Of a DNA stretch of 64,000 nt, positions 4,091 to 48,588 are shown piece by piece. How positions within the stretch are numbered: the first letter of the stretch is position 1; every line of letters begins with the position of its first letter. Made by a program: the position numbers and the translations under genes. Below the pieces are notes generated by a model. That model did not search any database and had not been told where the DNA came from. It was given only the letters and a program-made list of their open reading frames with translations. The DNA comes from a virus (taxonomy: Duplodnaviria > Caudoviricetes): positions 26,206-90,205 of IMG/VR virus record IMGVR_UViG_3300032280_000786; one strand, written 5' to 3'.

Positions 4091-4579
4091 ATGGAAAATT
4101 TATCTTTAATAGAATTGTACCAAATTAAAAGTCGTTTGATTAAAGAATCAATGATTGAGGAACCATTATGGTTTGAAGTTTTAGAATCAATTAAATCAAT
4201 TGAAGATAAAATATTTGAATCTACATCCGCAACGGGTGGTCCCGTTGTTGGTGGAGGCGGTGGAATGACTGGTAACCCAGTTGATTTAGGTAGAACTCCA
4301 CTTGGTCCTAAATGGGCTTCTGGTGGTGGAGATGATAAAAGTTATATTAATGCACCTTATAACCCAGGTGGTGCTGACAGAATGATGCAAAGAATTCCTG
4401 TGATGAGTAAAGACCACGGACCTAGAACCGGTAAAAAGTCAAGAGAGAAAAAACTTGACATTAAAGCTTTAAAACAAGCTTTGGCTAAGAGAAAGGATTT
4501 TCAAAGACAAGAAGGCGAGAAAAAAGTTATGAACTTTGATAACTTCACTAAAGATGAAATAAATACTATTAAGAAGTAA
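4091..4579 (+). CDS. Hypothetical protein (Gly-rich centre, basic C-terminus)
   Basis: 162-aa ORF with a TATATA-type motif just upstream. Confidence 0.6.
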   Translation: MENLSLIELYQIKSRLIKESMIEEPLWFEVLESIKSIEDKIFESTSATGGPVVGGGGGMTGNPVDLGRTPLGPKWASGGGDDKSYINAPYNPGGADRMMQRIPVMSKDHGPRTGKKSREKKLDIKALKQALAKRKDFQRQEGEKKVMNFDNFTKDEINTIKK

Positions 4580-4746
4580 TGAAGTATATTAAGTTATTTG
4601 AAGACATACATATACACGATAGATGGGAACAACAATCTATCGAAGAACAAGATATAGAAGAATTCGCAGAAACTTTATTTGTAAATCTATTAGATGATGG
4701 ATTCACGGTAGATACTGATCGCAGGAGGTTATATATGGAAATATAA
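4579..4746 (+). CDS. Small protein with MKYIKLFE leader (55 aa, not in the ORF track)
   Basis: ATG overlaps the previous stop. Translates to MKYIKLFEDIHIHDRWEQQSIEEQDIEEFAETLFVNLLDDGFTVDTDRRRLYMEI. Confidence 0.65.
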   Translation: MKYIKLFEDIHIHDRWEQQSIEEQDIEEFAETLFVNLLDDGFTVDTDRRRLYMEI

Positions 4747-4793
4747 ACAAATTGCAAAATAATTTGTATAAATAAAAAAAATAATTCATAAGA

Positions 4794-5342
4794 ATGTTTA
4801 AAACAGAAAAAGTAATAATTATCGGCCCTTCGGGGTCGGGTTAAGGAAAAGATTATTTAATGAGAAAATTAGCAGAGAAAGGTATGAAACCTTGCTTAAA
4901 ATGGACTACAAGACCTATAAGAAAATTTGAAAAACAAGGAGTAAATTATAATTTTGTAAATGAACAATTATTTTTACAAACAATAAATGAAGACAAGTTT
5001 TTATCTTGTCAAAAATTTGAAGTAACTCCTGAAAATTCAGAGCCTCAAACTTGGTACTACGGTATTACACTTGAAGAGTTTCACAATTCGGATATTTTTA
5101 TTATGACACCTGGTGAATTTAGAGATTTACCTGCAGAATTAAGAAAAGGTTGTTGTGTTGTTTATTTGAACATAGACAGAGAAACAAGAGAGAAACGACT
5201 ACATAATAGAAAAGATAAAAATGATTCAATACAACGAAGATTAGATGCAGATGAAGAAGATTTTAAACAAAGTTTTGATTATGATTTAGGAATAACAGAT
5301 CCAGACTTTGGAGCAGATGATGTTTATTCACTAATAGATTAA
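4794..5342 (+). CDS. Guanylate kinase-like P-loop kinase interrupted by an in-frame TAA at 4842-4844
   Basis: ATG 4794 gives MFKTEKVIIIGPSGSG*GKDYLMRK, in frame with the tracked ORF at 4860. The downstream TTRPIRKFE..GVNYNFV, WYYG and ETREKRLHNR..DSIQRRL motifs are GMK-like. Confidence 0.75.
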
Positions 5343-5369
5343 AAAAAGAGAGCAATTGCTCTCTTTTTT
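5342..5369. terminator. Bidirectional intrinsic terminator
   Basis: aaaaaagagagc-aatt-gctctctttttt between convergent genes. Confidence 0.85.
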
Positions 5370-5373
5370 ATTA

Positions 5374-6093
5374 TTATGGTTCAGTTTTTCCTTCATATGT
5401 AAGACCGTGTAAAGCGCCATTAATACTATTACAAATACTTTCTGAACTATTTATCGTGTTTTCTAATACTGACATAATAATATTTAGTATAGAATAAACC
5501 TTCAATAAGTTTTTATCACTATCATAAAATTGAGATGAACATATACCTTCAACTAAGTCAATAGTTAAAAGAATATTATCATTATTTTTAATTTTCATTT
5601 TCTCTATAATAACTGCTGGTATACTAACTTCAACCATCTCTCTTTCATAATCATAAACTGTTTGATTTATTAGATTAAGAAAAGATTTAAGTATTTGTGG
5701 TTCATCCATTGTTTCGTATGTTTTACCTGCTACGAACTTCTCAATGTTTCTCTTGTAGTTTTTAAGATAGATTGTTAAGTATTTTCTAAATACCACAGTT
5801 CTATATTCTGTTGAGAATTGAAATGTTGGAACTTTTGAATAAGTCCAGAAGTCAATATAGTTAAATACGTCATGATTATCTATATCAGAAATGTTTATTT
5901 TTCTAACAGATGATTCAACCTCTTTAACTTTATTTGACATGAATTTATCAATAAACCAATCGGAAATTTTACCCATAAAATTTCCAAACCAATTACTTTT
6001 AATTAGTGTATAAATACCAAATAAAACGGCAGAAGTTAAAATTCCTTTTAACCCATGTTTTTCAACAAGTGGTACTAAGTCTGTGTAGTTCAT
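5374..6093 (-). CDS. Hypothetical protein with one N-terminal transmembrane segment
   Basis: Hydrophobic GILTSAVLFGIYTLI near the N-terminus, then a soluble helical domain. Confidence 0.6.
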   Translation of the reverse strand: MNYTDLVPLVEKHGLKGILTSAVLFGIYTLIKSNWFGNFMGKISDWFIDKFMSNKVKEVESSVRKINISDIDNHDVFNYIDFWTYSKVPTFQFSTEYRTVVFRKYLTIYLKNYKRNIEKFVAGKTYETMDEPQILKSFLNLINQTVYDYEREMVEVSIPAVIIEKMKIKNNDNILLTIDLVEGICSSQFYDSDKNLLKVYSILNIIMSVLENTINSSESICNSINGALHGLTYEGKTEP

Positions 6094-6221
6094 CTAATAT
6101 GATTATTTTGTCTTTTTATATATAAAATTTGAAAAGTAAAAAATTAAAATACCTTTATTTTATTCGTTTTTTAGTTAGTGGATAAAATAATTTAATATAT
6201 AATAAAAATTAAATAATCATT

Positions 6222-6548
6222 ATGAGTTTAAGACAAAATATAAACAAAGTTCACTTCGATCTTCAGAATAAATTTGAAGAAGTAACTATCACAGAGAAGT
6301 CTGATTTAAAATTAGGTAACTACTTTGAGTTATCAATTTTAGAAGGAAATAAAGAAGTTAAAGTTATTCTTAGAAAAACTGAGGCAGAGAAAAATGTATT
6401 TGAATGGTCTTACTTTTCAAACCCATTAAATGAGAGTTCTGATCTAGTTGAAAGAACATCAAAACTTGAAATGTTTTCTTTAGATATTCAAGAAGTTTTA
6501 GAGAAAAATAGATTTGATTCTGATTATCTTAACAAAATAAATAACTAA
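6222..6548 (+). CDS. Hypothetical protein
   Basis: 108-aa ORF behind TAATATATA (6193-6201), directly upstream of the baseplate gene. Confidence 0.6.
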   Translation: MSLRQNINKVHFDLQNKFEEVTITEKSDLKLGNYFELSILEGNKEVKVILRKTEAEKNVFEWSYFSNPLNESSDLVERTSKLEMFSLDIQEVLEKNRFDSDYLNKINN

Positions 6549-6552
6549 TAAA

Positions 6553-8522: not shown

Positions 8523-8590
8523 TATTGAAAAATAAAGAAAACCATTTCTAATATATAATATATAATAAACAATAAAAAAGTAATTAAAAC

Positions 8591-9226: not shown

Positions 9227-9260
9227 AAAAAAATAGACACTTTTAAGTGTCTATTTTTTT
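9227..9260. terminator. Intrinsic terminator
   Basis: aaaaaaatagacac-tttta-agtgtctattttttt hairpin with flanking A and T tracts. Confidence 0.8.
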
Positions 9261-9344: not shown

Positions 9345-9962
9345 ATGAAACATATTAAAAAATTCAATGATGATAAAATAAATGAAGAATTTTTTGGAGG
9401 TCCTCTTAAAGATTTAATGAATCCAAGAGTTGATGAACTTATAGAATTCTTGGAAGATTATAAGACTAAAATCAATGAACCTAATTCATTTGTTAATAAA
9501 GAGGAAAATAGAAAAGTTGAAAATATGTACCAATATATAATTCATAATTTAGACCTTGATACATTATCTAAATCAAATAGACAAGGTGATAAAGTAAGAG
9601 GGGAAGGTGAAAATTTTTCTCAAAAAGTTAAAAGAAGTATTAAAAATTTTGAAAGTATTTCAGAAGGTAAAGCTGAAAAAGCTTCTAAAAATCCTTACGG
9701 TAACAAAACCAAGGAGGATAAGAAAGACCAATTAAGAAAAGCGGTTGAAGATCATATCAAAACTAAAGAGTGTAAAACTAAACAAGTTGGAGATGATTTT
9801 GAAATTCATTTTGATGGGGAACATATTGGACAAGTTATGTTTCGTGATGAGAAAATCACCGTTAAGAAACAAGGAGAAAAATTCGGCAAAGAATTTAAGT
9901 ATAATGAATTAGGTAAAATTAAAACAGAAATAACTTCTGTAATAAAAGATTGCTGTGAATAA
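9345..9962 (+). CDS. Hypothetical protein with MKHIKKFND leader (putative internal head protein)
   Basis: Leader motif plus INEE, with TAATATATA at 9316. Confidence 0.6.
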   Translation: MKHIKKFNDDKINEEFFGGPLKDLMNPRVDELIEFLEDYKTKINEPNSFVNKEENRKVENMYQYIIHNLDLDTLSKSNRQGDKVRGEGENFSQKVKRSIKNFESISEGKAEKASKNPYGNKTKEDKKDQLRKAVEDHIKTKECKTKQVGDDFEIHFDGEHIGQVMFRDEKITVKKQGEKFGKEFKYNELGKIKTEITSVIKDCCE

Positions 9963-15110: not shown

Positions 15111-15668
15111 ATGAAATACTTAAAAAAGTTTAATGAAATGTTAGATCCAATGGGAAGTTGGAATCCTATTCAATTAAATAATGAAGAAGATTTAAAAGAA
15201 GAAGTTTGTACTGAATGTGACTGTATACCTTGTCAATGTACTGGCGAAGATGATGATGAAGATGAAGATTTAAAAGAAGGTTTAGATGATCATTTTAGAG
15301 ATGTCAGAGTAAATTCTTATCTTAAAATTGCAAGAGATAAATATAAAGGTAAATCCTCAGATGATATTGTTGATACTATTGATAAAGGTAATCCTGATTT
15401 AAGATTTATGGACGATAAAGAAAAGGATTTATTTAGAAGCGCTTGGGATAAAGAGAATACAAAAGGAACCTTTAAATACTTTATGTCTTTATCGAATGAT
15501 GAATTAAAAGATTATCAAAATAACTTTTCACATCATGATTTTGATAATCCTACTGAACATAGTCCAGAATTTGTTGCTTGGAAAAAAGCTTGTGAGATAA
15601 AAAAATGTTTCGATAAAGAACCATTTTATCGTTCTAGAAAAGAAAGTGAATTTCCTAGTAGATACTAA
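15111..15668 (+). CDS. Hypothetical protein with MKYLKKFNE leader and a CxxCxCxxCxC cluster
   Basis: The true start is probably 15111 (TAATATATA at 15079) rather than 14994. It contains CTECDCIPCQC and an acidic run. Confidence 0.6.
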   Translation: MKYLKKFNEMLDPMGSWNPIQLNNEEDLKEEVCTECDCIPCQCTGEDDDEDEDLKEGLDDHFRDVRVNSYLKIARDKYKGKSSDDIVDTIDKGNPDLRFMDDKEKDLFRSAWDKENTKGTFKYFMSLSNDELKDYQNNFSHHDFDNPTEHSPEFVAWKKACEIKKCFDKEPFYRSRKESEFPSRY

Positions 15669-19477: not shown

Positions 19478-20578
19478 ATGAAATATGTAAATACTTTCGA
19501 ATCATTTAAAACTAAGAGATTACAACCATTGAATGAAGAATTATTAGGTACAGTAATCAACTTTTTTAAAAATATGTGGGCTAAAGCTACTCAAGAGTTG
19601 AAAAAACTTGGAGATAATCCATCATTACAGCAATTAGATCAATGGATTGAGAAAAATCCATTTAATCCTGCTGATGATACTTATGTATTAAAGTCAGTAA
19701 TGGAAGAGTTTAATAAAAAACCAACTGCAAATGATCAAGATTGTTTAACACTTATAGATAGCATATTAGATCCTGAAACTGGTGCATTGGGTAAACAAGG
19801 TATGCAACCATTTTTTGATCAAATAATTAAAGCATTTGGTAATAATGCAGGTCCACTTAATGTAATTCAATATTATATGGAGAGAATTAGAGATAGAGCT
19901 ATTAAAGATTATAAATTTGCAGGTGGACCTGATTTAAAAGTTGGACAACCTGTAAAGTTAGATCCTAAAAAGAAAACATTAGGATTAGATGATGCAACTC
20001 ACTTACCCGATTTTAAGAAGATTTTAAAGGCAGCAACTGATGATAAGAAAAAGAAAGAAGCTACGATTAACTGGGTTAACAAAACATTAGTTCCTAGATT
20101 AGAAAAGTACACAACTGAAGTAACTGAGGATGAAGTTAACGCTTATTTAAAGACTAAAGGTGTTGAAGTGAGTGGTGATTATAAAGTAGGTGATACTGTT
20201 ATTTATAAGAGAGAAAAATTCAATCAAGCTAATTGGGATGCTTTAACTGATGATGATAAGAAAAAACCAAACGAAGGAAAAATAAATGATTTAGAGACCA
20301 AAGAAGAAATTGGAACTAAAAAGATTTCTAAGATAGAAGGTGAGAAAGTTAGCTTTGAAGGTGCAGATTTTACTAAACTAACATCAGATATTTTAATGAA
20401 AATAGAAGTTAATGCGGTAGCAGGTCAAGAAGATTTAACTAATACATTAAAAGATCTAAAAACTAAAAATGCTGATGCAATTCAAAAAATAGATGATATT
20501 TCTAAATTATATATGGATCCTGTTGCGAATAAGGAAAAAATTGAAGAAATTGAAAAAGCCATTGGAGGTGGAGCATAA
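19478..20578 (+). CDS. Hypothetical protein with MKYVNTFES leader (putative internal head protein)
   Basis: Leader plus LNEE, with TAATATATA at 19449. Confidence 0.6.
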   Translation: MKYVNTFESFKTKRLQPLNEELLGTVINFFKNMWAKATQELKKLGDNPSLQQLDQWIEKNPFNPADDTYVLKSVMEEFNKKPTANDQDCLTLIDSILDPETGALGKQGMQPFFDQIIKAFGNNAGPLNVIQYYMERIRDRAIKDYKFAGGPDLKVGQPVKLDPKKKTLGLDDATHLPDFKKILKAATDDKKKKEATINWVNKTLVPRLEKYTTEVTEDEVNAYLKTKGVEVSGDYKVGDTVIYKREKFNQANWDALTDDDKKKPNEGKINDLETKEEIGTKKISKIEGEKVSFEGADFTKLTSDILMKIEVNAVAGQEDLTNTLKDLKTKNADAIQKIDDISKLYMDPVANKEKIEEIEKAIGGGA

Positions 20579-21946: not shown

Positions 21947-22645
21947 TTATCTTTCCCATCCATTATCTTTATGACTTAAATCCTCATTAACAAGTTCTTC
22001 TAACATTTTAGAAATACTATTATATCTAACTTTTCTACCGTATAAGTTTGTAATATATAATTCTGTTTCACTTACATAAAGTACAAAGTCTAAATCTACC
22101 GTACTAAAGTAATAACTCACATAAAATTTCACTGCATTACCTACACCAAAATACTCACCACGTTCTCTACTATTAGTATCTACTTTTTTAAGATTTTCTC
22201 CTAAAAACTTTATAGTATTAACTTGTTGTTCATTTTCTGTATAACCTTCTGCCAAATCTTCATCATCATTATCAAATGAGTGTGATGTCGTTATTGCAAA
22301 TGTAGTTTGATTTGTAACTCTATTATACCCATAATCATGTACACCTAATAATTCTTGATAAAATTCTCTAGCCAAATCATATTGTTTTTGATTTACACCT
22401 TCATGATGTTCAAATATAAAATCTAATTGTTCTTGATTAAAATCAAATATACTTTCAGGTAAAGTTTTTGCAAACTCTGTAACACTATTAGTTTTTCTAT
22501 ATTCAAGAATACTTCTTATTGAAGCCATTTCTTCTTGAAGTTCTGTCATTTGTAATTGAAGATCCTCTAACTTAGCTTCTAATGTTTCTGTACTGATTGC
22601 ATTAAGATAACTTGATTCCTTTATAAACTCTAAATACTTTTTCAT
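21947..22645 (-). CDS. Hypothetical protein with MKKYLEFIKES leader
   Basis: Likely start at the internal Met 22645, with an N-terminal coiled coil. Confidence 0.55.
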   Translation of the reverse strand: MKKYLEFIKESSYLNAISTETLEAKLEDLQLQMTELQEEMASIRSILEYRKTNSVTEFAKTLPESIFDFNQEQLDFIFEHHEGVNQKQYDLAREFYQELLGVHDYGYNRVTNQTTFAITTSHSFDNDDEDLAEGYTENEQQVNTIKFLGENLKKVDTNSRERGEYFGVGNAVKFYVSYYFSTVDLDFVLYVSETELYITNLYGRKVRYNSISKMLEELVNEDLSHKDNGWER

Positions 22646-25923: not shown

Positions 25924-26595
25924 ATGAAACATTTAAAAGTATTTGAAAATTTTGATAAACAAGAAGATCAGTTTGACATTGAAAATGTTATGCTTTATAT
26001 GGTCAATGTACTTGACAACTATAAAGTAAACTTCTTTGATGTTGATAATAATATGATCAATTCTAATGATGAAAATATAAATGATTTTCAACTAACAAAA
26101 GATTTCCATAGTATTAGAAGAAGTAGATTTATGATAGAGATTATGCAAGATAATTCTAAACAACTTAGTATTCACGATATCGCAGAAATTTCAATTGAAA
26201 TGAGTACTACTATAAAACACTTAGAAAGAGAAGGTTGGATTTTATCTAGTTACCACCTTAATCAAACAAAACTTTCAAGTCATTTGAATGGAAAAGTTGT
26301 ATTTTATTATATTCATTATACTTTTTCAAAAGAAGATCAAGAAATTGAACCTACTAAAAGTTTACAAGATACTATACCTACTAATACAATATTAAGAGCA
26401 TTTAAAAAAGAAGGTATTGAAATTGAAAAACAAGATATTAAACATTTAGATGATTGTATTGAAATTGAAGATTGGTACACTGAGTATCTATCAAATAATG
26501 AAGTAGAAGATTCTCTTGATAAAATAACAGATCTTTTAGGTGCTACTGAATGGGAATGGTATCATGGAACAAATGGTATAAGATTTCAATTCTAA
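25924..26595 (+). CDS. Hypothetical protein with MKHLKVFEN leader
   Basis: The true start is probably 25924, just after TAATATATA, not 25879. Confidence 0.6.
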   Translation: MKHLKVFENFDKQEDQFDIENVMLYMVNVLDNYKVNFFDVDNNMINSNDENINDFQLTKDFHSIRRSRFMIEIMQDNSKQLSIHDIAEISIEMSTTIKHLEREGWILSSYHLNQTKLSSHLNGKVVFYYIHYTFSKEDQEIEPTKSLQDTIPTNTILRAFKKEGIEIEKQDIKHLDDCIEIEDWYTEYLSNNEVEDSLDKITDLLGATEWEWYHGTNGIRFQF

Positions 26596-33629: not shown

Positions 33630-34493
33630 ATGAAATATATTAAAACATACGAAGGTTTATTCGACTACTTCAAAAAAGAAAGTAAAGATAAACGCACTAA
33701 GACTAAACAGATTAAACAAGGTCTTACTAAACTAATAAATGATTATAAGTTAAGAATTGATAATAATTGGTCTCGTACTTTAATTCCTATCAGTGGTAAA
33801 GGAAATACACAACTTAATACAAATGATGGTAAAATTTGGATAAACATAAATGATGATTTTACAGTAGATGTTGCAGGTAATGTTGCTATGCGTTTTGGCT
33901 ATGACAAAGATTTACCTTGTAAGTTTAATAGAATAAATGGTAATTTCTTTATTGAGTTAAGTTTTTCTATCGATGATTTTATTGATAAATTTCCTGAAAG
34001 GGTTGAGGGTAAACTAAGTATAACTAATTGTGGATTGGATTCACTAAAAAATCTACCAACAAAATATGTTGGTAAAGACTTTGATTGTAGTTCTAATAAT
34101 TTAGAAACACTTGAAGGATTACCAGAACATATTGGTATTGAAATTAACGCAGAGTCAAATGATATTTATGCATTTGATGGTTTAGAAAATTATGGAATTA
34201 CTATTCATACATATCTTAACCCAATCATAAACGTTAAATTTTATGATAAAATTAGTAATGATTATATCAATTTAGAAACACTTATTTTAAGTACTAGTAT
34301 TCATAACCGTCATGATTTAAAAGATAGAGATTCAAATCTTGATATATATAAAGCGTGTGATCCAATTCATCCACCTTTAAAGAAAGGAGATAAACCTATC
34401 ATCTATCTTAATAGAATGGAAGCATTTGCTAGTGAACTAGATATAGAATTTAAGGTAACTGATCTTTTAAAACGATACTATGATGTAAGATAA
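33630..34493 (+). CDS. Leucine-rich-repeat-like protein with MKYIKTYE leader
   Basis: LDSLKNLPTKYVGKDFDCSSNNLETLEGLPEHIG matches phage LRR-type repeats. Confidence 0.6.
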   Translation: MKYIKTYEGLFDYFKKESKDKRTKTKQIKQGLTKLINDYKLRIDNNWSRTLIPISGKGNTQLNTNDGKIWININDDFTVDVAGNVAMRFGYDKDLPCKFNRINGNFFIELSFSIDDFIDKFPERVEGKLSITNCGLDSLKNLPTKYVGKDFDCSSNNLETLEGLPEHIGIEINAESNDIYAFDGLENYGITIHTYLNPIINVKFYDKISNDYINLETLILSTSIHNRHDLKDRDSNLDIYKACDPIHPPLKKGDKPIIYLNRMEAFASELDIEFKVTDLLKRYYDVR

Positions 34494-35057: not shown

Positions 35058-36218
35058 ATGAGAAATCTGTATAAATTCATAGATTTTATAAAAGAAGAAC
35101 TTAGAATTGATAAAATGAATTCTGAAGATTTGGAAAGAATAAAGATTGATTTATTAAAAAGAATTGATGAATATAAAGTTTTCATATTAAATAATATAGA
35201 ATACGACCTTAAAACTAATAAAATTGTTTATAAAGGATTTGAAGAAATAAATGTTGATTTAATAGTAACTGAATTAAATAATGAATTTGGTGCTGAAGTT
35301 ATACAAGATTTAAACATTGAAACCTTACTTCTAAAAGTAGAACAACTTTTAGAACTTAAAAGAAGAGATACTAAAAAAAATATCAGAAAACAGTTTGATG
35401 ATTTTGCCAAAACAATTGATAATAGAATATCTGTTATTAAAACTGGTGAAGAAGCTCAACACTTTGATGAATTTGAAGGAGAAAGTTCTCTTATTAAAAG
35501 AAAAGAATTTGAGGCAGAGAAATATCATATACAAGTAGAACTTTTAAAACTTCAAGAATGGGTAATAGCTAATAAAAAAAGAGTTGCCATAGTTTTTGAA
35601 GGAAGAGATTCTGCAGGAAAAGGATCTACAATCAAAAGATTTATTGAATATCTTAATCCAAAGGGATTTAGAGTAGTTGCTTTAGGAGTTCCAACACCAG
35701 AAGAGAAAGAAAATTGGTTTGCAAGATATGAAGCTCAGATGCCAAAAGAAGGAGAAATTGTTTTCTTTGATAGATCTTGGTATAATAGAGCGGTGGTAGA
35801 ACCAGCAATGGGATATTGTACTGAAGAACAATATAAAGATTTTATGGAAAATGTTGTCAAGTGGGAAGAAAAGATGATAAGAAAACAAGATCTTTATTTA
35901 GTAAAATTATGGTTTTCTATAACAAAAGAAAAACAATTAAAACGTTTTGATTTAAGACAACAAAGCCCTTTAAAATATTGGAAGTTTTCTCCTAATGATG
36001 CAAAGGTTGTAGATAAATGGGATGTAATAGGTGAATATAAAAATCAAATGTTTACTGTAACTTCAAGTAGAACAACACCTTGGGTAATAATAAACTCTAA
36101 TGATAAGAAGATAGGAATGCTCAATGCAATGAGATATGTACTTTCTAAAATACCCTATGATGGTAAAAATAGAAAAATAAGTGAATACTATCCAGAAGTA
36201 GTAAGTGTATTAACATAA
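35058..36218 (+). CDS. ppk2: Polyphosphate kinase 2 with a ~130-aa N-terminal extension
   Basis: IVFEGRDSAGKGSTIKRF, FRVVALGVPTPEE, FDRSWYNRAVVEPAMGYC and WKFSPND. Confidence 0.95.
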   Translation: MRNLYKFIDFIKEELRIDKMNSEDLERIKIDLLKRIDEYKVFILNNIEYDLKTNKIVYKGFEEINVDLIVTELNNEFGAEVIQDLNIETLLLKVEQLLELKRRDTKKNIRKQFDDFAKTIDNRISVIKTGEEAQHFDEFEGESSLIKRKEFEAEKYHIQVELLKLQEWVIANKKRVAIVFEGRDSAGKGSTIKRFIEYLNPKGFRVVALGVPTPEEKENWFARYEAQMPKEGEIVFFDRSWYNRAVVEPAMGYCTEEQYKDFMENVVKWEEKMIRKQDLYLVKLWFSITKEKQLKRFDLRQQSPLKYWKFSPNDAKVVDKWDVIGEYKNQMFTVTSSRTTPWVIINSNDKKIGMLNAMRYVLSKIPYDGKNRKISEYYPEVVSVLT

Positions 36219-37005: not shown

Positions 37006-37713
37006 ATGAAAATCTGTAATACTTGTAGTGAATTAAAAGACATAGAATTGTTCTTTAGAAATAAAAATACTAAAGATGGTAGACATTCATCATGTAAAGA
37101 TTGTCAAAATAAATCTAAAAATTATGATAAGATAAAAAGAAAAGAGTATTATGATAATACTAAACATAGAGACAATGAAAAAATAAAAATGAGACGTAGA
37201 AATTATTATTTGAATAACAAAGAAAAAGAAAATAAACTATCTGTGGAGTATAAAGAAAAAAACAGAGAAAATATAAATAAATATGCTATAGATTATTATT
37301 ATACTAATAAAGATACAGAGAAATATAAAGAAACTAAAAGAAATTACTATAAAAATAGATTAGATAATGATACTTTGTATAAAATTAGACATTATTTAAC
37401 TTGTATGTTAGGAACTTACTTTAGAAATGGTGGATTTACAAAGAAGACTAGAACATATGAAATATTAGGATGTTCATTTGAAGAGTTCAAATTACACCTA
37501 GAAAGTAAGTTTGAACCTTGGATGAATTGGGAAAATAGAGGTTTATATAATGGTGAAGTAAATTATGGATGGGACCTAGATCATATTATACCAATTTCCT
37601 CGGCCGAAACCGAGGAAGATATAATTAAACTAAACCACTATACTAATTTAAGACCTTTGTGTAGTTATGTAAACAGAGTAATCAAGAAGGACAAACTAGG
37701 TTTCTCTTTTTAA
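37006..37713 (+). mobile_element. Free-standing HNH homing endonuclease
   Basis: CNTC...CKDC and WDLDHIIP...LNHYTNLRPLCSYVN. Confidence 0.85.
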
Positions 37714-38476: not shown

Positions 38477-39655
38477 TTATAATAGTTTCTTAAAGTTTTC
38501 TACTTCTAATTCTTTAATTTTAATTCCAAGATCACGGCCAGTAATACCTTTAGCCATCAATTCTTCTGCTGATGTACTTGGTTTGTATTCTAAGAACTTA
38601 ATCTTAACTGGATCATTGATAGAACTAACCTTAATCCACTCTAATATAGTTGTATCAGTAATGAAACATTGCTCTTTCTTTTTAAACATTTCAAAGGCTG
38701 TCTCTGGTGTCAAAGTGTTGAAAGATAATAAGAAAATTACTTTCTTAGCTATATCACCTTCTATTTTATAATCTTGAACTAGTTTAGTTTCTAATCTGTT
38801 TAAAGGTTCATTTTTAAATAAGTTAGCAATCACTACAACAAAGTCAGAAGATTTCACCAAGTCAGTGTTTATATTAGCACCAGGAAAAACTTGTTCCCAC
38901 ATATCGAACTTAGTAAAGAAGTTCAAGTAGAAGTTGAAATCTTTAGCTTGTTTCCAAGCTTTCTTAATTTCTTCCCATATTCTTTCTTGAGAAATTCTTT
39001 TCATTTCACCAGTTTCTAGGTCAATGTTTTCTAATTGTTTTCTTTTCGCAATCGCTGCTTCAGTATCTTTATGTAATGGATGTTCGTATCTTGAAGCAAA
39101 TCTAAATGCTCTCAAAATTCTTAAACTATCTTCGTCAAATCTTTCAATAGGATCACCTACCATTCTTGTTATACCAGCTTCTAAGTCACCTTTACCACCA
39201 ACTAAATCAACTATCTCTCTTTTATCAAGATCATAGAATAAAGAGTTGTATGTTAAATCTCTTCGTTTAACATCATCTTCAATTGTTACTCCTAATTTAA
39301 CTTCTGGGTTTCTACCTTTAGAGGTATCTTCTCTAAAAGTTGCGATTTCCATTCCTTCTGGAACTTCTTTAGTGAAAACAACTACAACACCAAATGCCTT
39401 ACCTTGTAAGTTAGTTCTGTATGTTTTACTAACAATGTCAATAACTTCATCAGGAAGTGCATCAGTTGCTAAGTCAAAGTCTTTTGGTTTATCTCCAGTT
39501 AAAAAATCACGCACTGATCCACCAACAAGGTAAAGTTTCTTACCGTGTTCTTTGAATAGTTCGTTAAGATCTTTTACTGATTGAGGAATTATATCCCACA
39601 TATCTTTTGTTTGTATTGATTCCAAGAATTTATTATATTTAGTAATTAGTTTCAC
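38477..39655 (-). CDS. cca: CCA-adding tRNA nucleotidyltransferase (class II)
   Basis: YLVGGSVRD..KDFDLAT, EIATFRED, DVKRRDLTYNSL and RFDEDSLRILRAFRFA. GTG start. CCA addition versus poly(A) polymerase activity cannot be fully settled by eye. Confidence 0.85.
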   Translation of the reverse strand: MKLITKYNKFLESIQTKDMWDIIPQSVKDLNELFKEHGKKLYLVGGSVRDFLTGDKPKDFDLATDALPDEVIDIVSKTYRTNLQGKAFGVVVVFTKEVPEGMEIATFREDTSKGRNPEVKLGVTIEDDVKRRDLTYNSLFYDLDKREIVDLVGGKGDLEAGITRMVGDPIERFDEDSLRILRAFRFASRYEHPLHKDTEAAIAKRKQLENIDLETGEMKRISQERIWEEIKKAWKQAKDFNFYLNFFTKFDMWEQVFPGANINTDLVKSSDFVVVIANLFKNEPLNRLETKLVQDYKIEGDIAKKVIFLLSFNTLTPETAFEMFKKKEQCFITDTTILEWIKVSSINDPVKIKFLEYKPSTSAEELMAKGITGRDLGIKIKELEVENFKKLL

Positions 39656-39670: not shown

Positions 39671-40453
39671 TTATTGTTTAAAAAAGGAGTTAGGGTTAAC
39701 TTTGCCAATATACTCTGCAAAATCTTCCATTCCTATTCCACATTCTGTTGATATACCTGGTTCTGCAAGAACTTGACTTAATAAAGTTCTATACATTGTT
39801 TTATCACTAAATGGTACTGGATAGTTTATAGAACTATCTGCAAAGAATTTCTTTAATAAGATTTTTATTCTACCTGCACTTGGTCTATCTGCTAAAGAAA
39901 CTTTAGTACCTGCTGTAAAACTACCATCATTATAATAAAAGTTATTCGGTTCTCCGTTAAGTTCAAAGTGATTAGGTTCTAATTCTAAATATATTGCAAA
40001 TGTATTTGTTTGAAATCCAAATGTAGGCTCATAGTAATCAGGTTTTAATAGACCATACATTCTATCAAATTGTTCTCTTGTTTGTGGAATTACCCACATT
40101 TCAAAATAAATTGGTGTACTCTCTATTTTCCATCCTAGTTCATTTAGACGAGTATTATCTTTAGTTAAAAAACGTGTATCGTCTTTATACGGTTCTAAGT
40201 AAGGATAAAAACAAAAATAAACTTCTTCTTCAGTCTCCAACTCTTTAGTCTGTATTAGAATTTTGATTTTACCATACTTAGAATATGTTTCTACGTGTTT
40301 TTTCCAGTTATCAATAGCTTCTTTCCCGGCAATATCCTCACTATGTTTGTGAAGAATACTTGCTCTAGTATGATGTCCTAATCTAGCTAGTTTATCTGCA
40401 GCGTCTTTATAAGTTTTTGACTTTAATTCTTCGTTATATTTTAAGTATCTCAT
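39671..40453 (-). CDS. Hypothetical protein with MRYLKYNEE leader
   Basis: TAATATATA on the minus strand at 40460-40468. Confidence 0.6.
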   Translation of the reverse strand: MRYLKYNEELKSKTYKDAADKLARLGHHTRASILHKHSEDIAGKEAIDNWKKHVETYSKYGKIKILIQTKELETEEEVYFCFYPYLEPYKDDTRFLTKDNTRLNELGWKIESTPIYFEMWVIPQTREQFDRMYGLLKPDYYEPTFGFQTNTFAIYLELEPNHFELNGEPNNFYYNDGSFTAGTKVSLADRPSAGRIKILLKKFFADSSINYPVPFSDKTMYRTLLSQVLAEPGISTECGIGMEDFAEYIGKVNPNSFFKQ

Positions 40454-40486: not shown

Positions 40487-40741
40487 ATGAGATACTTAAA
40501 AGTTTATGAAGATTTTAAAAAGAATAACCTAGAAGGTTCTTTAATTACAATAGAAGATGTACTTAAATGTATTAAGTCTGGTGGTGTAATTTACGCTACA
40601 ACCGTTAAAGAATTTGCGGATAATGATCCTAAAGCACCTCTAAGACCTGTAAATATAGATGAAGATGGTGAAGTAACCGTTGAGTTTGAAGGTAAAGAGT
40701 ATGAAGTAAATCTAAGAAATATAGAGTCTATTGAATTTTAA
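40487..40741 (+). CDS. Small protein with MRYLKVYED leader
   Basis: 84 aa with an SH3/Sm-like beta-rich C-terminal half. Confidence 0.55.
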   Translation: MRYLKVYEDFKKNNLEGSLITIEDVLKCIKSGGVIYATTVKEFADNDPKAPLRPVNIDEDGEVTVEFEGKEYEVNLRNIESIEF

Positions 40742-41199
40742 AACAATAAACTCTTTAGTTTAATATCCCTACTAAATGATTTTATATCATCTATATAAGT
40801 ACATTCATATTTATCTAAAATTTCACTATAACAAGCCCATCTATCTTTTCTCTTTGACCAAAAAGAAACCATTGGATCATCTGATCTACCAATCGGTACA
40901 TACAAGTCTTTATTATTCTCTAAACAATAATCTACTAGCTCTTGTATTTTAGAAGGATCATTTATAAAAATGTCCAAGTGATAAACCATTATACAATCTT
41001 GTTCAATTTTAGAATAATCGATTTTATCTGGATTATTTATACCCAACTTTCTAACACCAATAAAATCATTTAGTTTGTACTTATATAAAAGTAAAGTACT
41101 TAAATCGTTTCTATTGAGAGTTTTGTATATTTCTATAAGTTCCTTTCTTTCTTGGAATTTTCCCTCCCAGGACCATTTATCATCTATTCTATAAATCAT
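40738..41199 (-). CDS. Hypothetical protein with C-terminal RDIKLKSLL motif
   Basis: 153-aa ORF. Confidence 0.55.
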   Translation of the reverse strand: MIYRIDDKWSWEGKFQERKELIEIYKTLNRNDLSTLLLYKYKLNDFIGVRKLGINNPDKIDYSKIEQDCIMVYHLDIFINDPSKIQELVDYCLENNKDLYVPIGRSDDPMVSFWSKRKDRWACYSEILDKYECTYIDDIKSFSRDIKLKSLLF

Positions 41200-41820: not shown

Positions 41821-42339
41821 ATGAAACACTTAAAACAATTTGAAAACTGGACATCAACTAGTACTGGTGATAAAGAAGTTGAATATGATTATACTAGTAA
41901 AGATTCTATTTATCATGGAATTCGTGATATAAATGTATCAAGAGATGGTATTAGAACAAAAGCTAAAGCAAAGTTTGATTCTGGTGCACGTTCATCTAGT
42001 ATTGACTTTAAAGTAGCTAAAAGATTAGGTATATCAGATGATTTTATTAAAAAATGTAAAGAGTTGGACTCAATTGACTTAGGTAATTATGTTAAAAATC
42101 CTAAGATTATATCTAAACTAGAACAAACTAAAGTTGAAAATTTATTTTTGAAACAACTAAAGGTTCAATTTCCTGAATTGTCAGATGTTAAATTAGTTAA
42201 ATCTTCATCCGGATTCTCGCTTAGAATGGTGATTCGTTTAAATCTAGAGTTTAATGGTAAAGTTATATCAACTGACGCAAATATTCGTGATAGAGCAGGT
42301 TTAGCTTGTGAAATGTTAGTTGGATTAAAAGATATGTAA
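41821..42339 (+). CDS. Retropepsin-fold protease (RimK-associated 'ATP-dependent Zn protease' type) with MKHLKQFEN leader
   Basis: AKFDSGARSSSID (D-[ST]-G-A) and a C-terminal NIRDR..L...MLVG. Confidence 0.7.
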   Translation: MKHLKQFENWTSTSTGDKEVEYDYTSKDSIYHGIRDINVSRDGIRTKAKAKFDSGARSSSIDFKVAKRLGISDDFIKKCKELDSIDLGNYVKNPKIISKLEQTKVENLFLKQLKVQFPELSDVKLVKSSSGFSLRMVIRLNLEFNGKVISTDANIRDRAGLACEMLVGLKDM

Positions 42340-42343: not shown

Positions 42344-42670
42344 ATGAAACACATAAAAGTATTTGAAGAGTTTGGTGGTAGAGAAAAAGAAGTAGTATTT
42401 ACCGGTAAAAGAAACCCAAGATTAGTAATCAAAGTTGTTAAATCACCTGATGGTAGAATAATAGAAATTGAGAATGAAACTGGAATTAGATTTCCATTTT
42501 CAGTTGGACAAATCTTAAATAGAAACGCTGAAGTTTGGGCTTGTAATAATAATTTCTTAATGGATGGTAAAGATATGTGTCCAGAAGAGAAAGTATTTGG
42601 TATTAGAAAAAAAGATATACCACAAGGACACGAATTAAGAATGATGTTCCCCGGAAAGTTTAGAAATTAA
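42344..42670 (+). CDS. Hypothetical protein with MKHIKVFEE leader
   Basis: 108-aa ORF. Confidence 0.6.
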   Translation: MKHIKVFEEFGGREKEVVFTGKRNPRLVIKVVKSPDGRIIEIENETGIRFPFSVGQILNRNAEVWACNNNFLMDGKDMCPEEKVFGIRKKDIPQGHELRMMFPGKFRN

Positions 42671-42672: not shown

Positions 42673-43824
42673 ATGAAATGGATAAAGTTATTTGAAAATT
42701 TTAATGAGATAAATAATATAGTTATAATAGGAGCTGGTATATCATCTCTTTATTCGGCATATATTTTAAAGAAAAATTATCCAAAAATCAAATACACTAT
42801 AATAGAAAAGTCTGATGAGTGTGGTGGTAGAGTTAAAATGTCAAATTTAGGAGATGTTAAAATAACAACTGGTGCTTATTTTACCAGAGTTGATAAAGAT
42901 AAAACATTGTTAAAGCTAGTAAAAGATCTTGATATAAAGTTAAATCCATATGTATTAGATATAGACTATTCTTTTAAAGAATTAGATGTTAATGAGTTAG
43001 TAGATAAATTAAAACAAGCACTACCTAAATATGATAGGAGTAAAATAAAATTTAAAGAATTTGCCAAAGATGTTTTAGGTAAGGATTATGATAACTTTAT
43101 TAATATGATGGGTTATACTGATTTTGAAAATGCTGATATAAATGATACTTTATTTAATTATGGTTTAGAAGATAATATACCTGGTTATAAAGTTATGAAT
43201 TTGGATTGGAGTAAAGTTATAGAAAAGTTAGTTAACTTTATAGGAAAAGAAAATATTGTATTAAATACAGAAGTTAAATCAATAAAAGAAAAAAATGATT
43301 CTTTTCTAATAAATTCTAAATATGAGTGTGATGGTGTGATAATAGGAGTTACTATAAACTCATTAAAGAGCCTTTTAGATAACAAAATTTACAATCAAAT
43401 TGAATCTCAAGAATTTATAAAAGTTTTTGCAAAATCTAAAGACTTAGATGTAAATAAATATACTGTTGTTAATTCAGAACTAAGAAAGGTTATACCAGTC
43501 AAAGATGATGTTTATACAATTGCTTACTCTGATAATAAAGATGCCATATCTCTAAAGTCAAAAGGCACTAGTTATTTTGAGGAATTATTGTCTAAAGATT
43601 TTAATAAAGATATAAAAATTACTAATGTGAAAAAGTTTTTTTGGGAAGAAGGAACACATTATTATAAACCTTTAATTGGATATAAAAGTAGAAAGGAATT
43701 CATAAAAGACGCGCAGCATCCAAAGAATAATATATGGGTAGTTGGTGAGGTAGTTGCAGAAAGACAAGGTTGGGTAGAAGGTGCTCTTTCGTCTGTTGAG
43801 AAAATAAGTTTATTCAAGAAGTGA
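42673..43824 (+). CDS. FAD-dependent oxidoreductase (flavin amine oxidase-like) with MKWIKLFEN leader
   Basis: IVIIGAGISSLYSA...IIEKSDECGGRV...TGA and C-terminal VVGE...QGWVEGALSS. Confidence 0.85.
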   Translation: MKWIKLFENFNEINNIVIIGAGISSLYSAYILKKNYPKIKYTIIEKSDECGGRVKMSNLGDVKITTGAYFTRVDKDKTLLKLVKDLDIKLNPYVLDIDYSFKELDVNELVDKLKQALPKYDRSKIKFKEFAKDVLGKDYDNFINMMGYTDFENADINDTLFNYGLEDNIPGYKVMNLDWSKVIEKLVNFIGKENIVLNTEVKSIKEKNDSFLINSKYECDGVIIGVTINSLKSLLDNKIYNQIESQEFIKVFAKSKDLDVNKYTVVNSELRKVIPVKDDVYTIAYSDNKDAISLKSKGTSYFEELLSKDFNKDIKITNVKKFFWEEGTHYYKPLIGYKSRKEFIKDAQHPKNNIWVVGEVVAERQGWVEGALSSVEKISLFKK

Positions 43825-43916
43825 AACATTTAAGAAAATTTAATGAAGGTAAAGACTGGGTTGAAAAAGAAATTCAAAAAATTTTAGATAAGAATGATAC
43901 TGACAAAAGAAATTAA
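43821..43916 (+). pseudogene. Truncated leader-bearing ORF (31 aa) cut by the downstream endonuclease gene
   Basis: GTG start overlapping the previous TGA, translating to (V/M)KHLRKFNEGKDWVEKEIQKILDKNDTDKRN. Confidence 0.5.
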
Positions 43917-44574
43917 AGTAGAACTTACTCAATTTAATTACCACCACTATAAAAGAATAGGTTATGATACTGATAATAAGGAGTTTATTATGGTTCGTAT
44001 CGAAGATATAGGGAAAAGAACACCGATTAAAATTGATGTAAAATGTGATTTGTGTGGTAAAGAAAAAAGAATAAATTATAGAAAATATAGTGATAATATA
44101 TCAAAGTATAACATATACACATGTTCTAATAAATGTGCTATGTTTAAAAATGAAATGACTAATTTAGAAAAATATGGTAATAAACATCAGTGTAGAAATG
44201 AAAAGGTACAAGATAAGATACTATCAACTAAACTAGATAGAGGACTTATATCAAATTCGTTTGAGGACTTCTTCAATTATAGAAGAGTTGTGAATAATCT
44301 AACAAATAGAGTTAAGAAAAGTTTATATAAAAATTGGGATGGTTATGATTACTATGATAAAGATTATATACAAGAAAACCTACTACTCGGTTTTAATAAT
44401 ATAGATTATCCTACGATAGACCATAAGATTTCAGTTTTTATAGGATACAAAGAAGGTTTATTACCAATAGAAATTGCGAGTATTGAGAACCTTTGTATAA
44501 CAAAAAGAAAAAATAATTCATCCAAAGGATATAAAAACGAAGAAGATTATATAAAACAAAAAATCCAGTCATAG
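43894..44574 (+). mobile_element. Putative HNH-like homing endonuclease
   Basis: CDLC...TCSNKC zinc finger, KYG repeat, and C-terminal PTIDHKISV...IASIENLCITKRKNNSSK. Confidence 0.65.
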
Positions 44575-44586
44575 ACTGGATTTTTT
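44558..44586. terminator. Bidirectional intrinsic terminator
   Basis: aaaaatccagtc-ata-gactggattttt. Confidence 0.8.
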
Positions 44587-44587
44587 G

Positions 44588-46141: not shown

Positions 46142-46265
46142 AATTTTTAATTAGTTTTATTATTTATTCTACAAAGATATGTATAAAAAGTTTAATAAAA
46201 AATAAATTATAATCTTTTTTCAAAAAAAAACTAATAGGGAGAGTTTAGTTTTTAATATATACTAT

Positions 46266-47123: not shown

Positions 47124-47137
47124 GTGAGATTTTTTTT
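47106..47137. terminator. Bidirectional intrinsic terminator
   Basis: aaaaaatctcac-aattaa-gtgagattttttt. Confidence 0.75.
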
Positions 47138-47387
47138 AATAAATTTTATAAACCTCTAGGTCTTTATGACTTTTCTTTAATAAACCTTTCTCAGTTTTAA
47201 TAGTAAAGATTGTGTTCCCATTGAAATCCTCTTTATCTACTATCTCACCATCCATTAAGGATTTACCAAGGTGAAATGTTATCTTATCACCTATGTTCAA
47301 TTCTTTAACTTCTGTTAAGGAAAAACCTTTTTCACCAGAACCGTCTAAGTATGACTTTCCTTCACTAAATCTTTTTAAGTATCTCAT
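47136..47387 (-). CDS. Small SH3-like protein with MRYLKRFSE leader
   Basis: TAATATATA on the minus strand at 47406-47414. Confidence 0.55.
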   Translation of the reverse strand: MRYLKRFSEGKSYLDGSGEKGFSLTEVKELNIGDKITFHLGKSLMDGEIVDKEDFNGNTIFTIKTEKGLLKKSHKDLEVYKIY

Positions 47388-47427
47388 ATAATAATTATTT
47401 TTTTTTATATATTAAAAATTAAAAACG

Positions 47428-47709
47428 TTATTTTAACAATTCCCTTAATCTTTCTTCTCTAAATTCTTCAAGTGTTGTGAATACAGATTTTGGATAAAGG
47501 CAAGTACTACCACTATCATCAACTAATCTGTAATTATCATTTTCACCTATCTTGTTATTGGTTCTAACAAATTCACTTTGGTATGTTTTACCAATAGTTA
47601 AATTTGGAAATCCAAAACCTGGTTTTCCTTTACTCCAAGTTCCTTGCCATAAAGGTCTTTGTAGTTGGTGTGAACCATATAAATTTGTTTTACATACTAT
47701 TTGTATCAT
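47428..47709 (-). CDS. Hypothetical protein with C-terminal REERLRELL motif
   Basis: 93-aa ORF. Confidence 0.55.
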   Translation of the reverse strand: MIQIVCKTNLYGSHQLQRPLWQGTWSKGKPGFGFPNLTIGKTYQSEFVRTNNKIGENDNYRLVDDSGSTCLYPKSVFTTLEEFREERLRELLK

Positions 47710-47894
47710 TTTAACAATTCGTCTATCTTTTTAGATTTTAAAAAGTTTTTGTATGATTGAACTTCAAGTGGATCAACACTTTCAATCAAAGTTTCAAAGT
47801 CAATTTTATTCAAAAAGTAATTGTCTAATAAACTTGTGTCTATTAGAACTTGATTTTCAATTAAGTATTGTATGTATTCTTTTTCGTAATTCAT
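47706..47894 (-). CDS. Small hypothetical protein ending KSKKIDELLK
   Basis: Likely start 47894, 4 nt after TATATTTG. Confidence 0.5.
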   Translation of the reverse strand: MNYEKEYIQYLIENQVLIDTSLLDNYFLNKIDFETLIESVDPLEVQSYKNFLKSKKIDELLK

Positions 47895-47932
47895 AGCACA
47901 AATATACAAAAATTTATTTAATATATACTATT

Positions 47933-48040
47933 ATGATTAAAAAATTTAATGATTTTGTTTTAGAAGAACTAGCTTATCTATCCGGACATAGACAACCACT
48001 TTATCATTTTACTTCTGCTTTAAAAGTATCCACATATTAA
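47933..48040 (+). pseudogene. Truncated leader-bearing ORF (35 aa)
   Basis: TAATATATA at 47919, translating to MIKKFNDFVLEELAYLSGHRQPLYHFTSALKVSTY*. Confidence 0.5.
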
Positions 48041-48105
48041 AGTTTATAATATAGATAAAGATAATCATAGAAAGAAGGTTGAAATTACTGATAAGTATAT
48101 CAATC

Positions 48106-48588
48106 CTAAACCGGTTGATAGTTATCAAACTGATCTAAAAACTTAAATTGACTTACATCTAATTTAAACCCATCAAATTTATTTAGGAAATCAATAAACT
48201 CTTTGAGTGAATTACTATCTAGAGCAAATATAGTGTTAGATGGATCAGTTTTAGATTTAAACGAAGTATATTCAATAACACCGACTTTACTTGGACTATC
48301 GATATAAAATTCACAAGCCATCGCATCTCCCCAGGTTATATCTATATCTATTCTCATTTTTGGATCTTCCGAGAAATAAAAGTCAAATTCTAGTGTACTA
48401 GGAGCACCCCATTCATTATTTGAATTTTCATATGTGACTTGTATCATATCGGCATTCTTCATTATATTTCCAAGATTGAATGTATGTTCCCCATCTTTAA
48501 TTACAACCATTTGTTGAGGAAGAATTGTTTTCCAATCTACATCATAGATGTTTGATTCAAATAGAATATATGATTTTAAGTATTTCAT
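48106..48588 (-). CDS. Hypothetical protein with MKYLKSYILFES leader
   Basis: 160-aa ORF. Confidence 0.6.
   Translation of the reverse strand: MKYLKSYILFESNIYDVDWKTILPQQMVVIKDGEHTFNLGNIMKNADMIQVTYENSNNEWGAPSTLEFDFYFSEDPKMRIDIDITWGDAMACEFYIDSPSKVGVIEYTSFKSKTDPSNTIFALDSNSLKEFIDFLNKFDGFKLDVSQFKFLDQFDNYQPV

Follow-up and report, generated by a model that had tools for sequence, protein, structure and literature searches.

In a 64,000-nucleotide (nt) stretch of viral DNA, hereafter called the window, a short peptide tag of the type MKYLKKFNE stands at the very start of a series of otherwise unrelated open reading frames (ORFs). The window consists of bases 26,206-90,205 of the 90,205-bp linear IMG/VR viral contig IMGVR_UViG_3300032280_000786 (28% G+C), which is a fragment of a megaphage of the 'Mahaphage' clade with a whole genome of probably about 635 kb. 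The tag is strictly N-terminal, it is a protein-level signal under selection and it lies outside the fold of the proteins that carry it. Its sequence suggests, with the chances in our view evenly balanced, a capsid-targeting propeptide system of the T4 type on about a tenth of the proteome, for which a repeat in the protease-scaffold protein of related phages would be the likely receptor, with the same cutting rule for tag and repeat.

The sequence-only reading of the window had listed 15 starts with this leader, and all of them carry it, with the translations as it gave them. The looser versions that it named on PPK2 (35058), on the CCA enzyme (39655 on the minus strand, with a GTG start) and on an ORF of 35 amino acids (aa) at 47933 are present as well. 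The six-frame translation of the 90-kb contig contains the core of the tag, [KR][YHWN][LIV][KRN].[FY], 35 times, in 19 cases right after a start codon. We built a position matrix from residues 2-12 of the tags of a relative only, the 634,780-bp genome LR745206.1, and then applied it to this contig with a threshold of at least 10 bits. This gave 18 matches, all of them at start codons (3,633 scored), and none at the 77,832 other positions; of the strict matches, 14 lie within the window, and the 26 kb upstream of it hold another four to five. Enrichment is therefore found at N-termini only (18 versus 0), the point for which the sequence-only reading had proposed a profile scan, and N-terminal bias in AT-rich DNA does not account for the tag. 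Beyond the tag the proteins are unrelated, as had been claimed: after removal of the first 14 residues, the 99 tagged proteins of this contig and LR745206.1 fall into 89 BLASTP clusters.

Synonymous codons are used in the tag as they are genome-wide (Lys AAA 74% and 74%, Glu GAA 71% and 72%, Asn AAT 82% and 81%, respectively), which shows that selection acts on the amino acids of the tag. The swaps seen at tag positions are conservative in protein terms (Tyr/His/Trp/Phe, Leu/Ile/Val, Lys/Arg and Phe/Tyr). Furthermore, the upstream DNA and its spacing vary among the tagged genes, and the operon-internal genes at 42344, 42673 and 4579 are tagged without having a promoter-like motif.

Two common roles of N-terminal sequences were considered and rejected. 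For an mRNA-level start element, such as a downstream box or a leaderless enhancer, there is no nucleotide conservation beyond what the amino acids need, and synonymous codons are used as in gene bodies. A Sec, Tat or lipoprotein signal peptide does not fit either, as positions 2-12 of the tag consist of Lys/Arg, aromatic residues and Glu/Asn, then Asp/Glu-rich sequence, with no hydrophobic core of at least 10 residues. The true signal peptides of the same genomes differ in appearance from the tag.

Purifying selection on the tag is seen in the family of the enzyme encoded at 42673-43824, which had been read as an FAD oxidoreductase and is indeed an FAD/NAD(P)-binding amine-oxidase-like enzyme with an intact and conserved active-site fold. 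Nearly all of its 120 best homologs keep the tag, down to 54% identity. Among the 42 orthologs with less than 72% identity, residues 1-10 are 81% identical to those of the enzyme studied here, residues 11-15 are 26% identical and the rest is 61% identical; Glu8 of the tag is invariant (30 orthologs). The AlphaFold model of the enzyme has a mean predicted local distance difference test (pLDDT) score of 92 and a predicted template modelling (pTM) score of 0.90, with a pLDDT below 50 for residues 1-10 and a Rossmann strand from residue 15. In this model the tag is a free, disordered and detachable peptide. In the two orthologs P0075 and P0088, a fresh tag (MKNLLTYEEFLAES and MKYLKIFKKFDED) was found ahead of a decayed old copy (..YKLFENFNE and ..PLFESFNN), which indicates that tags are replaceable or duplicable as modules.

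The relatives of the contig are the largest genomes of the Mahaphage clade, with Bacteroidetes as predicted hosts (PMC7162821). The baseplate wedge protein of the contig is 74% identical to that of LR745206.1 and 71% identical to that of LR756502.1 (642 kb), followed by LR756504.1 with 41%, LR756501.1 (735 kb) with 38%, LR756500.1 with 32% and the Lak megaphages of Prevotella with 28%. The contig is syntenic with 486-569 kb of LR745206.1 and contains tail-fibre, baseplate, topoisomerase II and nucleotide-metabolism genes. No head genes, the head protease included, were found on its 90 kb, no tRNAs were found in the 64-kb window and no DNA similarity was found between this DNA and cultured phages. 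The completeness of the contig is 27% (CheckV), and a 635,274-bp contig encodes a protein 99% identical to one from this contig, which is why we put the complete genome at probably about 635 kb. Proteins almost identical to those of this phage are present in well over 100 public assemblies.

In LR745206.1, 83 of the 955 ORFs are tagged. They are dispersed across 634 kb and show two subtypes, MKYLK.F[NE]ES and MKYLK.YK[IL]FES. An exact DNA pattern of the tag was found at 57 sites in LR756502 (one site for the reversed pattern, used as control), at 33 sites in LR756504 (control two) and at 13 sites in LR756500 (control zero). The same pattern had no site in the 735-kb phage, in Lak-A2 or in cultured phages of Tenacibaculum, Flavobacterium, Chryseobacterium and Sphingomonas. 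The 735-kb phage has a form of its own, MI[KT]KF..[FY].E, also written MIKKF.LFE, on about 30 of the 555 ORFs in the 400 kb that were looked at, and the tags of LR756500 read MKYIKEYE[ED]F[IV]NE[AS], also given as MKYIKEYEDFINEA. With a looser grammar, such an N-terminus is found on 9-13% of the ORFs in three genomes, and the grammar persists among phages with baseplate proteins only 32-41% identical. No such tag family was found in Lak-A2 (TAG read as sense) and Tenacibaculum phage PTm1. In the literature searched, by motif strings or by capsid targeting sequence in combination with huge phages, we found no description of the tag, and it is not mentioned by Al-Shayeb et al. 2020.

The best described peptide of comparable form is the T4 tag MKTYQEFIAE, which is removed once by the head protease (PMC8442874). 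Its residues 4 and 7 (Tyr and Phe) serve targeting and its residues 8 and 10 (Ile and Glu) serve processing (PMC9026906), and the T-even internal proteins are diverse, sharing only the tag (PMC3012670). In the megaphage tags, a Glu is found at residues 8-13 in 80 out of 83, compared with 38% of other N-termini. After this Glu comes Ser, Asn, Glu, Ala or Gly in 64 of the 80 tags, and 58 of them have a hydrophobic residue two positions before it. The most conserved residues are the aromatic ones at tag positions 3 and 7 (or 7 and 10).

Family profiles place the prohead protease encoded by tag-bearing relatives in the gp21 family (S77). LR745206.1 has a T4-type head module with a portal protein (PF07230), a 707-aa protease protein at 198546-200669 (locus L058:8546-10669, with orthologs in L100-L103) and a capsid protein (PF07068); the genes for these three proteins have no tag. 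The first 265 residues of the 707-aa protein are similar to head maturation proteases (phrog_207, E = 4e-30). With a profile built from 24 diverse members of the protease family, T4 gp21 (5JBL) was the best PDB sequence (E = 2.9e-5), a match reached only by the family profile, as the search of PDB sequences with the single protease sequence gave none. The DHP and SSR columns, which are aligned with the His and Ser motifs of T4, are invariant in the family, which has about 2,810 representatives at E <= 0.001.

Beyond these 265 residues the 707-aa protein is acidic (isoelectric point (pI) 4.2) and contains 11 tandem 14-residue repeats with the unit YSEY[IL]AEN[LV]DK.I, followed by an acidic low-complexity stretch and a conserved C-terminal domain. 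T4 gp21 cuts after [IL]-x-E, and every repeat unit holds such a motif. Across LR745206, LR756502, LR756504 and LR756501 (735 kb) there are 11-14 YSEY[IL]AEN repeats, in LR756500 the repeats are degenerate and in Lak-A2 there are none. Out of 150 family representatives, 88 have at least four repeat units, some of which read YQEYIAEA, the core of the T4 tag with one Phe to Tyr change. At the end of the capsid protein propeptide stands a conserved [ILM]-x-E with N or D as the next residue, before a variable stretch (six Mahaphages). In the distant relatives L142 and L149, the portal, protease-scaffold and capsid genes are immediately followed by about ten genes starting with MIK.F[DE]EF[ILV].E.

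Besides these typical repeats, divergent protease genes carry the units FAEHVAEH and WSEHVTET. The PDB profile search also matches designed coiled coils across the repeat region. Directly 3' of the capsid gene of LR745206.1, at 202508-202897, lies an ORF for a 129-aa protein with an NFACT-R_1 RNA-binding domain (PF05670, E = 1.5e-16) and the tag variant MIKKYKLFKEG. Another protein of this genome, 83 aa long and encoded at 460435 on the minus strand, has three scaffold-like units (..YEDYIAES.., ..YSEYISEN.. and ..YCDYLCEN..) and may be a free mini-scaffold.

According to the sequence-only reading most tagged genes sit behind TAATATATA, and this was borne out: ATATATA is present within 60 nt upstream of 11 out of 16 tagged genes and 38 out of 104 other genes here. 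In LR745206.1 it is found within the same distance of 43 of the 83 tagged genes (52%) and of 196 of the 872 others (22%), with an odds ratio of 3.7 (p = 4e-8). Before the genes for portal, protease and capsid protein it lies at a distance of 19-31 nt. The distances between motif and start are bimodal, with 4-5 nt and 20-27 nt. In the window, TAATATATA(C/G) ends 4-6 nt before the ATG at 25924, 33630, 40453 (-), 40487, 48588 (-), 47933 and others.

For a T4-type capsid-targeting propeptide we propose the following course of events. The tagged proteins would be made from the phage promoter type that also drives head and baseplate genes. Their free N-terminal peptide, with a basic start, two aromatic residues three to four apart and a hydrophobic-x-Glu ending, would bind the core of the assembling prohead, where its likeliest partner would be the repeat region of the protease-scaffold protein, with units of the same grammar. 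The gp21-family protease would cut after the Glu, by which the body would be freed inside the head, and the leader would leave together with the scaffold fragments. The cargo would then either stay with the DNA and be ejected into the next host, or act only in assembly. Binding, cleavage, packaging and ejection are all steps that we infer.

A more specific version of this mechanism is mimicry, which we offer tentatively as a possible but doubtful explanation. The tag would imitate one 14-residue unit of the scaffold repeat (YSEY[IL]AEN), would be woven into the prohead core and would be cut by the same rule, and the T4 tag (YQEFIAE) would descend from this ancient repeat as its relic. In the largest known phages, about one gene in ten would code for cargo that is loaded into the head and probably injected, which amounts to at least 80 acidic and mostly unknown proteins in each genome. 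When a matrix derived from the repeats was run against all proteins, its matches were enriched at N-termini just 4-8-fold; they were a handful and had the T4-like form throughout, which limits the support for mimicry to that subset of the tags. No clear co-variation between repeat unit and tag was found in longer IMG/VR loci.

The tagged bodies are small (median 149 aa) and acidic (median pI 4.8, 4% above pI 9), and an Asp/Glu-rich stretch follows the tag. Family searches with them were almost empty (Pfam and PHROG). Only two of 82 tagged proteins of LR745206.1 have a Pfam domain, Peptidase_M15_4 and DUF6576, respectively, and among the strictly tagged proteins of the window domains were found only in 41821 (partial PF05618) and 42673 (FAD/NAD-binding amine-oxidase-like). 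The cargo is thus almost all ORFan, and its description as enzyme-rich in the sequence-only reading finds no support, nor does the leucine-rich repeat (LRR) body, which appeared in no Pfam search. Of the protease body only a C-terminal PF05618 match in 41821 remains, and the leader on PPK2 and the CCA enzyme is real in loose versions only. Ten of the 16 tagged genes here have a homolog in the 634-kb relative, and the gene set turns over fast. The tagged genes of the window are listed below.

4579..4746 (+): tagged ORF of 55 aa, MKYIKLFED, 13.5 bits; no promoter-like motif; its start overlaps the stop of 4091-4579; no Pfam match.
9345..9962 (+): tagged ORF of 205 aa, MKHIKKFND, 18.0 bits; TAATATATA upstream; no Pfam or PHROG match.
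15111..15668 (+): tagged ORF of 185 aa, MKYLKKFNE, 22.9 bits, closest to the tag consensus; no family match.
19478..20578 (+): tagged ORF of 366 aa, MKYVNTFES; the LR745206.1 ortholog has MKYVRTFES (52% identity); ESM Atlas returned nothing for it.
21947..22645 (-): ORF of 232 aa with a T4-like tag, MKKYLEFIKES; its LR745206.1 homolog begins with MKYLRKYNES.
25924..26595 (+): tagged ORF of 223 aa, MKHLKVFEN, 18.1 bits; TAATATATAC ends 6 nt 5' of the ATG.
33630..34493 (+): tagged ORF of 287 aa, MKYIKTYEG, 10.7 bits.
35058..36218 (+): PPK2 with the loose T4-like tag MRNLYKFIDFIKEE; PF03976 at residues 147-372, after a 146-aa N-terminal extension.
38477..39655 (-): CCA-adding enzyme (tRNA nucleotidyltransferase) with the loose tag (V)KLITKYNKFLES; PF01743 from residue 41, after a 40-residue extension; the ortholog has MILKKYKMFLES.
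39671..40453 (-): tagged ORF of 260 aa, MRYLKYNEEL, 8.8 bits; a paralog/ortholog pair in LR745206.1 has MKYLRKFNEEL.
40487..40741 (+): tagged ORF of 84 aa, MRYLKVYED, 12.1 bits; divergent from 40453 (-).
41821..42339 (+): tagged ORF of 172 aa, MKHLKQFEN, 19.8 bits; C-terminal PF05618 (Zn_protease); the first of three adjoining tagged genes.
42344..42670 (+): tagged ORF of 108 aa, MKHIKVFEE, 16.2 bits; operon-internal, with no promoter-like motif of its own.
42673..43824 (+): FAD/NAD(P)-binding amine-oxidase-like enzyme of 383 aa, which starts with MKWIKLFENFNE.
43821..43916 (+): ORF of 31 aa with a perfect tag, (V)KHLRKFNEG, 22.8 bits; its GTG start overlaps the preceding stop and it ends just inside ORF 43894-44574; probably a remnant.
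47136..47387 (-): tagged ORF of 83 aa, MRYLKRFSE, 17.4 bits.
47933..48040 (+): ORF of 35 aa, which starts with MIKKFNDFVLEE, the tag form dominant in the 735-kb relative.
48106..48588 (-): tagged ORF of 160 aa with the long tag form, MKYLKSYILFES, 16.8 bits.

The two short tagged ORFs, 43821-43916 (31 aa) and 47933-48040 (35 aa), adjoin members of a repeated ORF family starting with MI[IL][TD]K.I.V (43894 and 46266), of which 46266-47123 matches DUF7487. Both short genes look truncated, perhaps by the insertion of these ORFs.

Several points weigh against a capsid-targeting propeptide. To our knowledge, no known case comes near a cargo of 9-13% of all genes. The pI is below 6 in 87% of the tagged proteins and in 53% of the others (p = 1e-12), and such acidic bodies are at odds with the internal proteins of T4, which are highly basic (PMC8442874). 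Compared with T4 IPI-III as a class, the tagged bodies are small as well, but acidic where that class is highly basic and DNA-associated. Moreover, about a quarter of the tags have Thr, Lys or Ala two before the first Glu. The aromatic residues are spaced by 3, as in T4, only in the long or T4-like forms and by 4 in the short form, and the dominant short tag MK[YH]LK.F[NE]E scores poorly against the scaffold-repeat matrix. Between this contig and LR745206.1 the exact identity of the tags is 54% and that of the bodies 58%, while the tag stays within the motif, so the stronger conservation of the tag in the FAD family is not general. That tags and repeats occur together in five megaphages and are both missing from Lak-A2 and PTm1 speaks for the propeptide, but this correlation is based on two negatives and confounded by phylogeny. 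The evidence on the protease comes from relatives with about 70-80% identical proteins, the contig itself being without a head module, and the evidence as a whole consists of sequence and predicted structure, the tag-bearing relatives being uncultured. The 'late' nature of the ATATATA motif is not established either, because the motif also precedes the topoisomerase gene at 58962. The analogy to T4 drawn in the sequence-only reading is partly upheld: the T4-type portal, the gp21-family protease, the gp23-type capsid protein, the tag-like repeats and the Glu endings support it, and the acidic cargo is unlike T4.

Acidic cargo would also be awkward beside packed DNA, and this is one of the arguments for reading the tag as a docking or sorting motif for another partner or destination, an explanation that we consider unlikely and yet take seriously. 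The tag might be recognised by a phage chaperone, by part of the tail or baseplate, or by a protease of host or phage origin that sets the time of degradation, or it might direct proteins to an intracellular compartment. That the N-terminal peptide is disordered and conserved would suit any docking motif, and four tagged genes are located in the tail-fibre/baseplate region of the contig. In addition, a C-terminal tag, RDxKIxxIL, is never found on N-tagged proteins, which implies that the phage uses more than one address. However, such a motif leaves unexplained why the Glu is near-universal and followed by a small residue, why the tag resembles both the mapped determinants of the T4 tag and the unit of the protease-scaffold repeat, and why arrays of tagged genes come right after the capsid gene in distant relatives.

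It is improbable that the tagged proteins enter the prohead core merely as auxiliary core or scaffold parts, which would be degraded and expelled at maturation and not injected. As many as 89 unrelated bodies, an FAD enzyme with a conserved active-site fold included, are hard to explain as filler, and the rapid turnover of the gene set (10 of 16 with a homolog) resembles that of arms-race cargo such as the T-even internal proteins. What speaks for this role is the acidity that the tagged proteins share with the repeat part of the protease-scaffold protein (pI 4.2), together with the 83-aa LR745206.1 protein made of three scaffold-like repeats.

We give still less credit to a functionless shared start, carried with captured genes behind a common promoter and start cassette, or one that aids initiation on leaderless mRNAs. 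In 28 of the 83 tagged genes of LR745206.1 only 3-9 nt separate the promoter-like motif from the ATG, and the mRNAs of genes with the motif so near the ATG may be leaderless or nearly so; the orthologs with a new tag before a decayed one would also fit a cassette. However, 40 of the 83 tagged genes have no such motif, whereas 86 of the 872 untagged genes have it at 9 nt or less, and the capsid, portal and protease genes are untagged. Synonymous sites are no more constrained in the tag than elsewhere, the tag of the FAD family is under purifying selection (81% versus 61% identity, Glu8 invariant) and the motif grammar is kept among phages with 32-41% identical baseplate proteins. A recognition leader for a modifying enzyme, for example of the radical-SAM type, is very improbable: one radical-SAM gene of LR745206.1 at about 134.4 kb adjoins tagged genes at 132.1 and 133.4 kb, but no radical-SAM (PF04055) match was found in this contig or in LR756504 (at least 33 tags), the 83 tags are dispersed over 634 kb and the tag lacks the Cys, Ser or Thr pattern typical of such substrates. 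The cassette or translation explanation and the modifying-enzyme explanation are thus largely rejected.

Besides the N-terminal tag, a second tag, R[DE]x[KRQ][IL]xx[IL][LI], was found in the last 15 residues of other ORFs, typically as IRDxKIxxIL. It is present on 58 ORFs of LR745206.1 and never occurs together with the N-terminal tag (0 of 83 and 0 of 16). In 55 of these 58 ORFs there is no upstream ATATATA, and in 8 of the 58 the sequence TATATTTG, which resembles the Bacteroidetes promoter consensus TAnnTTTG, lies upstream. The C-terminal tag has the look of an address of its own, for another class of genes, perhaps the early ones. The ORFs of the window with this tag are the following.

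18583-18924 (-): ORF with the C-terminal tag.
40738-41199 (-): ORF with the C-terminal tag.
47428-47709 (-): ORF with the C-terminal tag.
52592-52840 (-): ORF with the C-terminal tag.
58100-58345 (-): ORF with the C-terminal tag.
60801-61058 (+): ORF with the C-terminal tag.
61365-61886 (+): ORF with the C-terminal tag.

Another group consists of five paralogous ORFs that start with MK[IV]C..C, three of which are located in the window at 23517-24071 (-), 32698-33618 (+) and 37006-37713 (+) and two more upstream of it. They resemble 197781-198470 of LR745206.1, are scattered among conserved genes and are absent at the syntenic sites of LR745206.1. No Pfam match was found for them.

If the tag is a T4-type capsid-targeting propeptide, it would group about 10% of the unannotated genes in the largest phage genomes into one class, head cargo. 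The tagged proteins would then be candidates for first-minute effectors against host defences, and with the tag there would be a natural, modular means of addressing foreign proteins to the inside of very large capsids. If, furthermore, the T4 tag copies a scaffold repeat unit, as the distantly related megaphages suggest, the question of how it finds the prohead core, open since 1996, becomes testable. If the capsid reading is wrong, the finding that dozens of unrelated proteins across a clade share a strictly N-terminal address, and that a C-terminal one excludes it, would still speak for a way of sorting proteins in megaphages that has not been described.

Like the capsid targeting sequence of T4, the megaphage tag comprises about 10 residues at the extreme N-terminus of unrelated, fast-evolving proteins and has an M-K start, two aromatic residues, which have the T4 spacing in the long and T4-like forms only, and a hydrophobic-x-Glu ending followed by a small residue. 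In some copies, such as MKKYLEFIKES and MKYIKEYEDFINEA, the grammar is nearly identical to that of MKTYQEFIAE, and the lineage, like T4, encodes a gp21-family protease and T4-type portal and capsid proteins. In contrast to the handful of tagged genes in T4, there are at least 83 per genome (9-13% of ORFs), and in the dominant form the aromatic residues are 4 apart and the ending, F-N-E or F-E, is shorter. Moreover, the megaphage cargo is acidic, whereas the T4 internal proteins are basic, and the megaphage protease is fused to a repeat scaffold.

The giant phages phiKZ, 201phi2-1 and SPN3US also have many head-internal proteins that are cut C-terminal to Glu by gp21-like proteases (PMC5694885), as is predicted for the megaphages, and their propeptides are thought to target proteins into the prohead (PMC5694885). 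Unlike the megaphage tag, these propeptides are mostly longer than 100 residues and have no shared short consensus, and their cleavage motif is A/S/G-x-E (PMC5694885). Processing in phiKZ, 201phi2-1 and SPN3US was seen by mass spectrometry (PMC5694885), whereas that of the megaphage tag is predicted from sequence.

The cargo-loading peptides of encapsulins are short disordered terminal peptides too, and address unrelated enzymes into a shell of the HK97 fold. They differ from the megaphage tag as proposed here in being usually C-terminal, in binding the shell protein and in staying uncleaved, and there is no sequence likeness between the two. The repeat region of the protease-scaffold protein, finally, would share its fate with the T4 core protein gp22, which is cut small by gp21 as are gp67 and gp68: with one [IL]-A-E site per 14 residues, it would be cut into small peptides like gp22. 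Unlike the scaffolding core of T4, the scaffold-like part of the megaphage protein is a regular tandem repeat fused to the protease.

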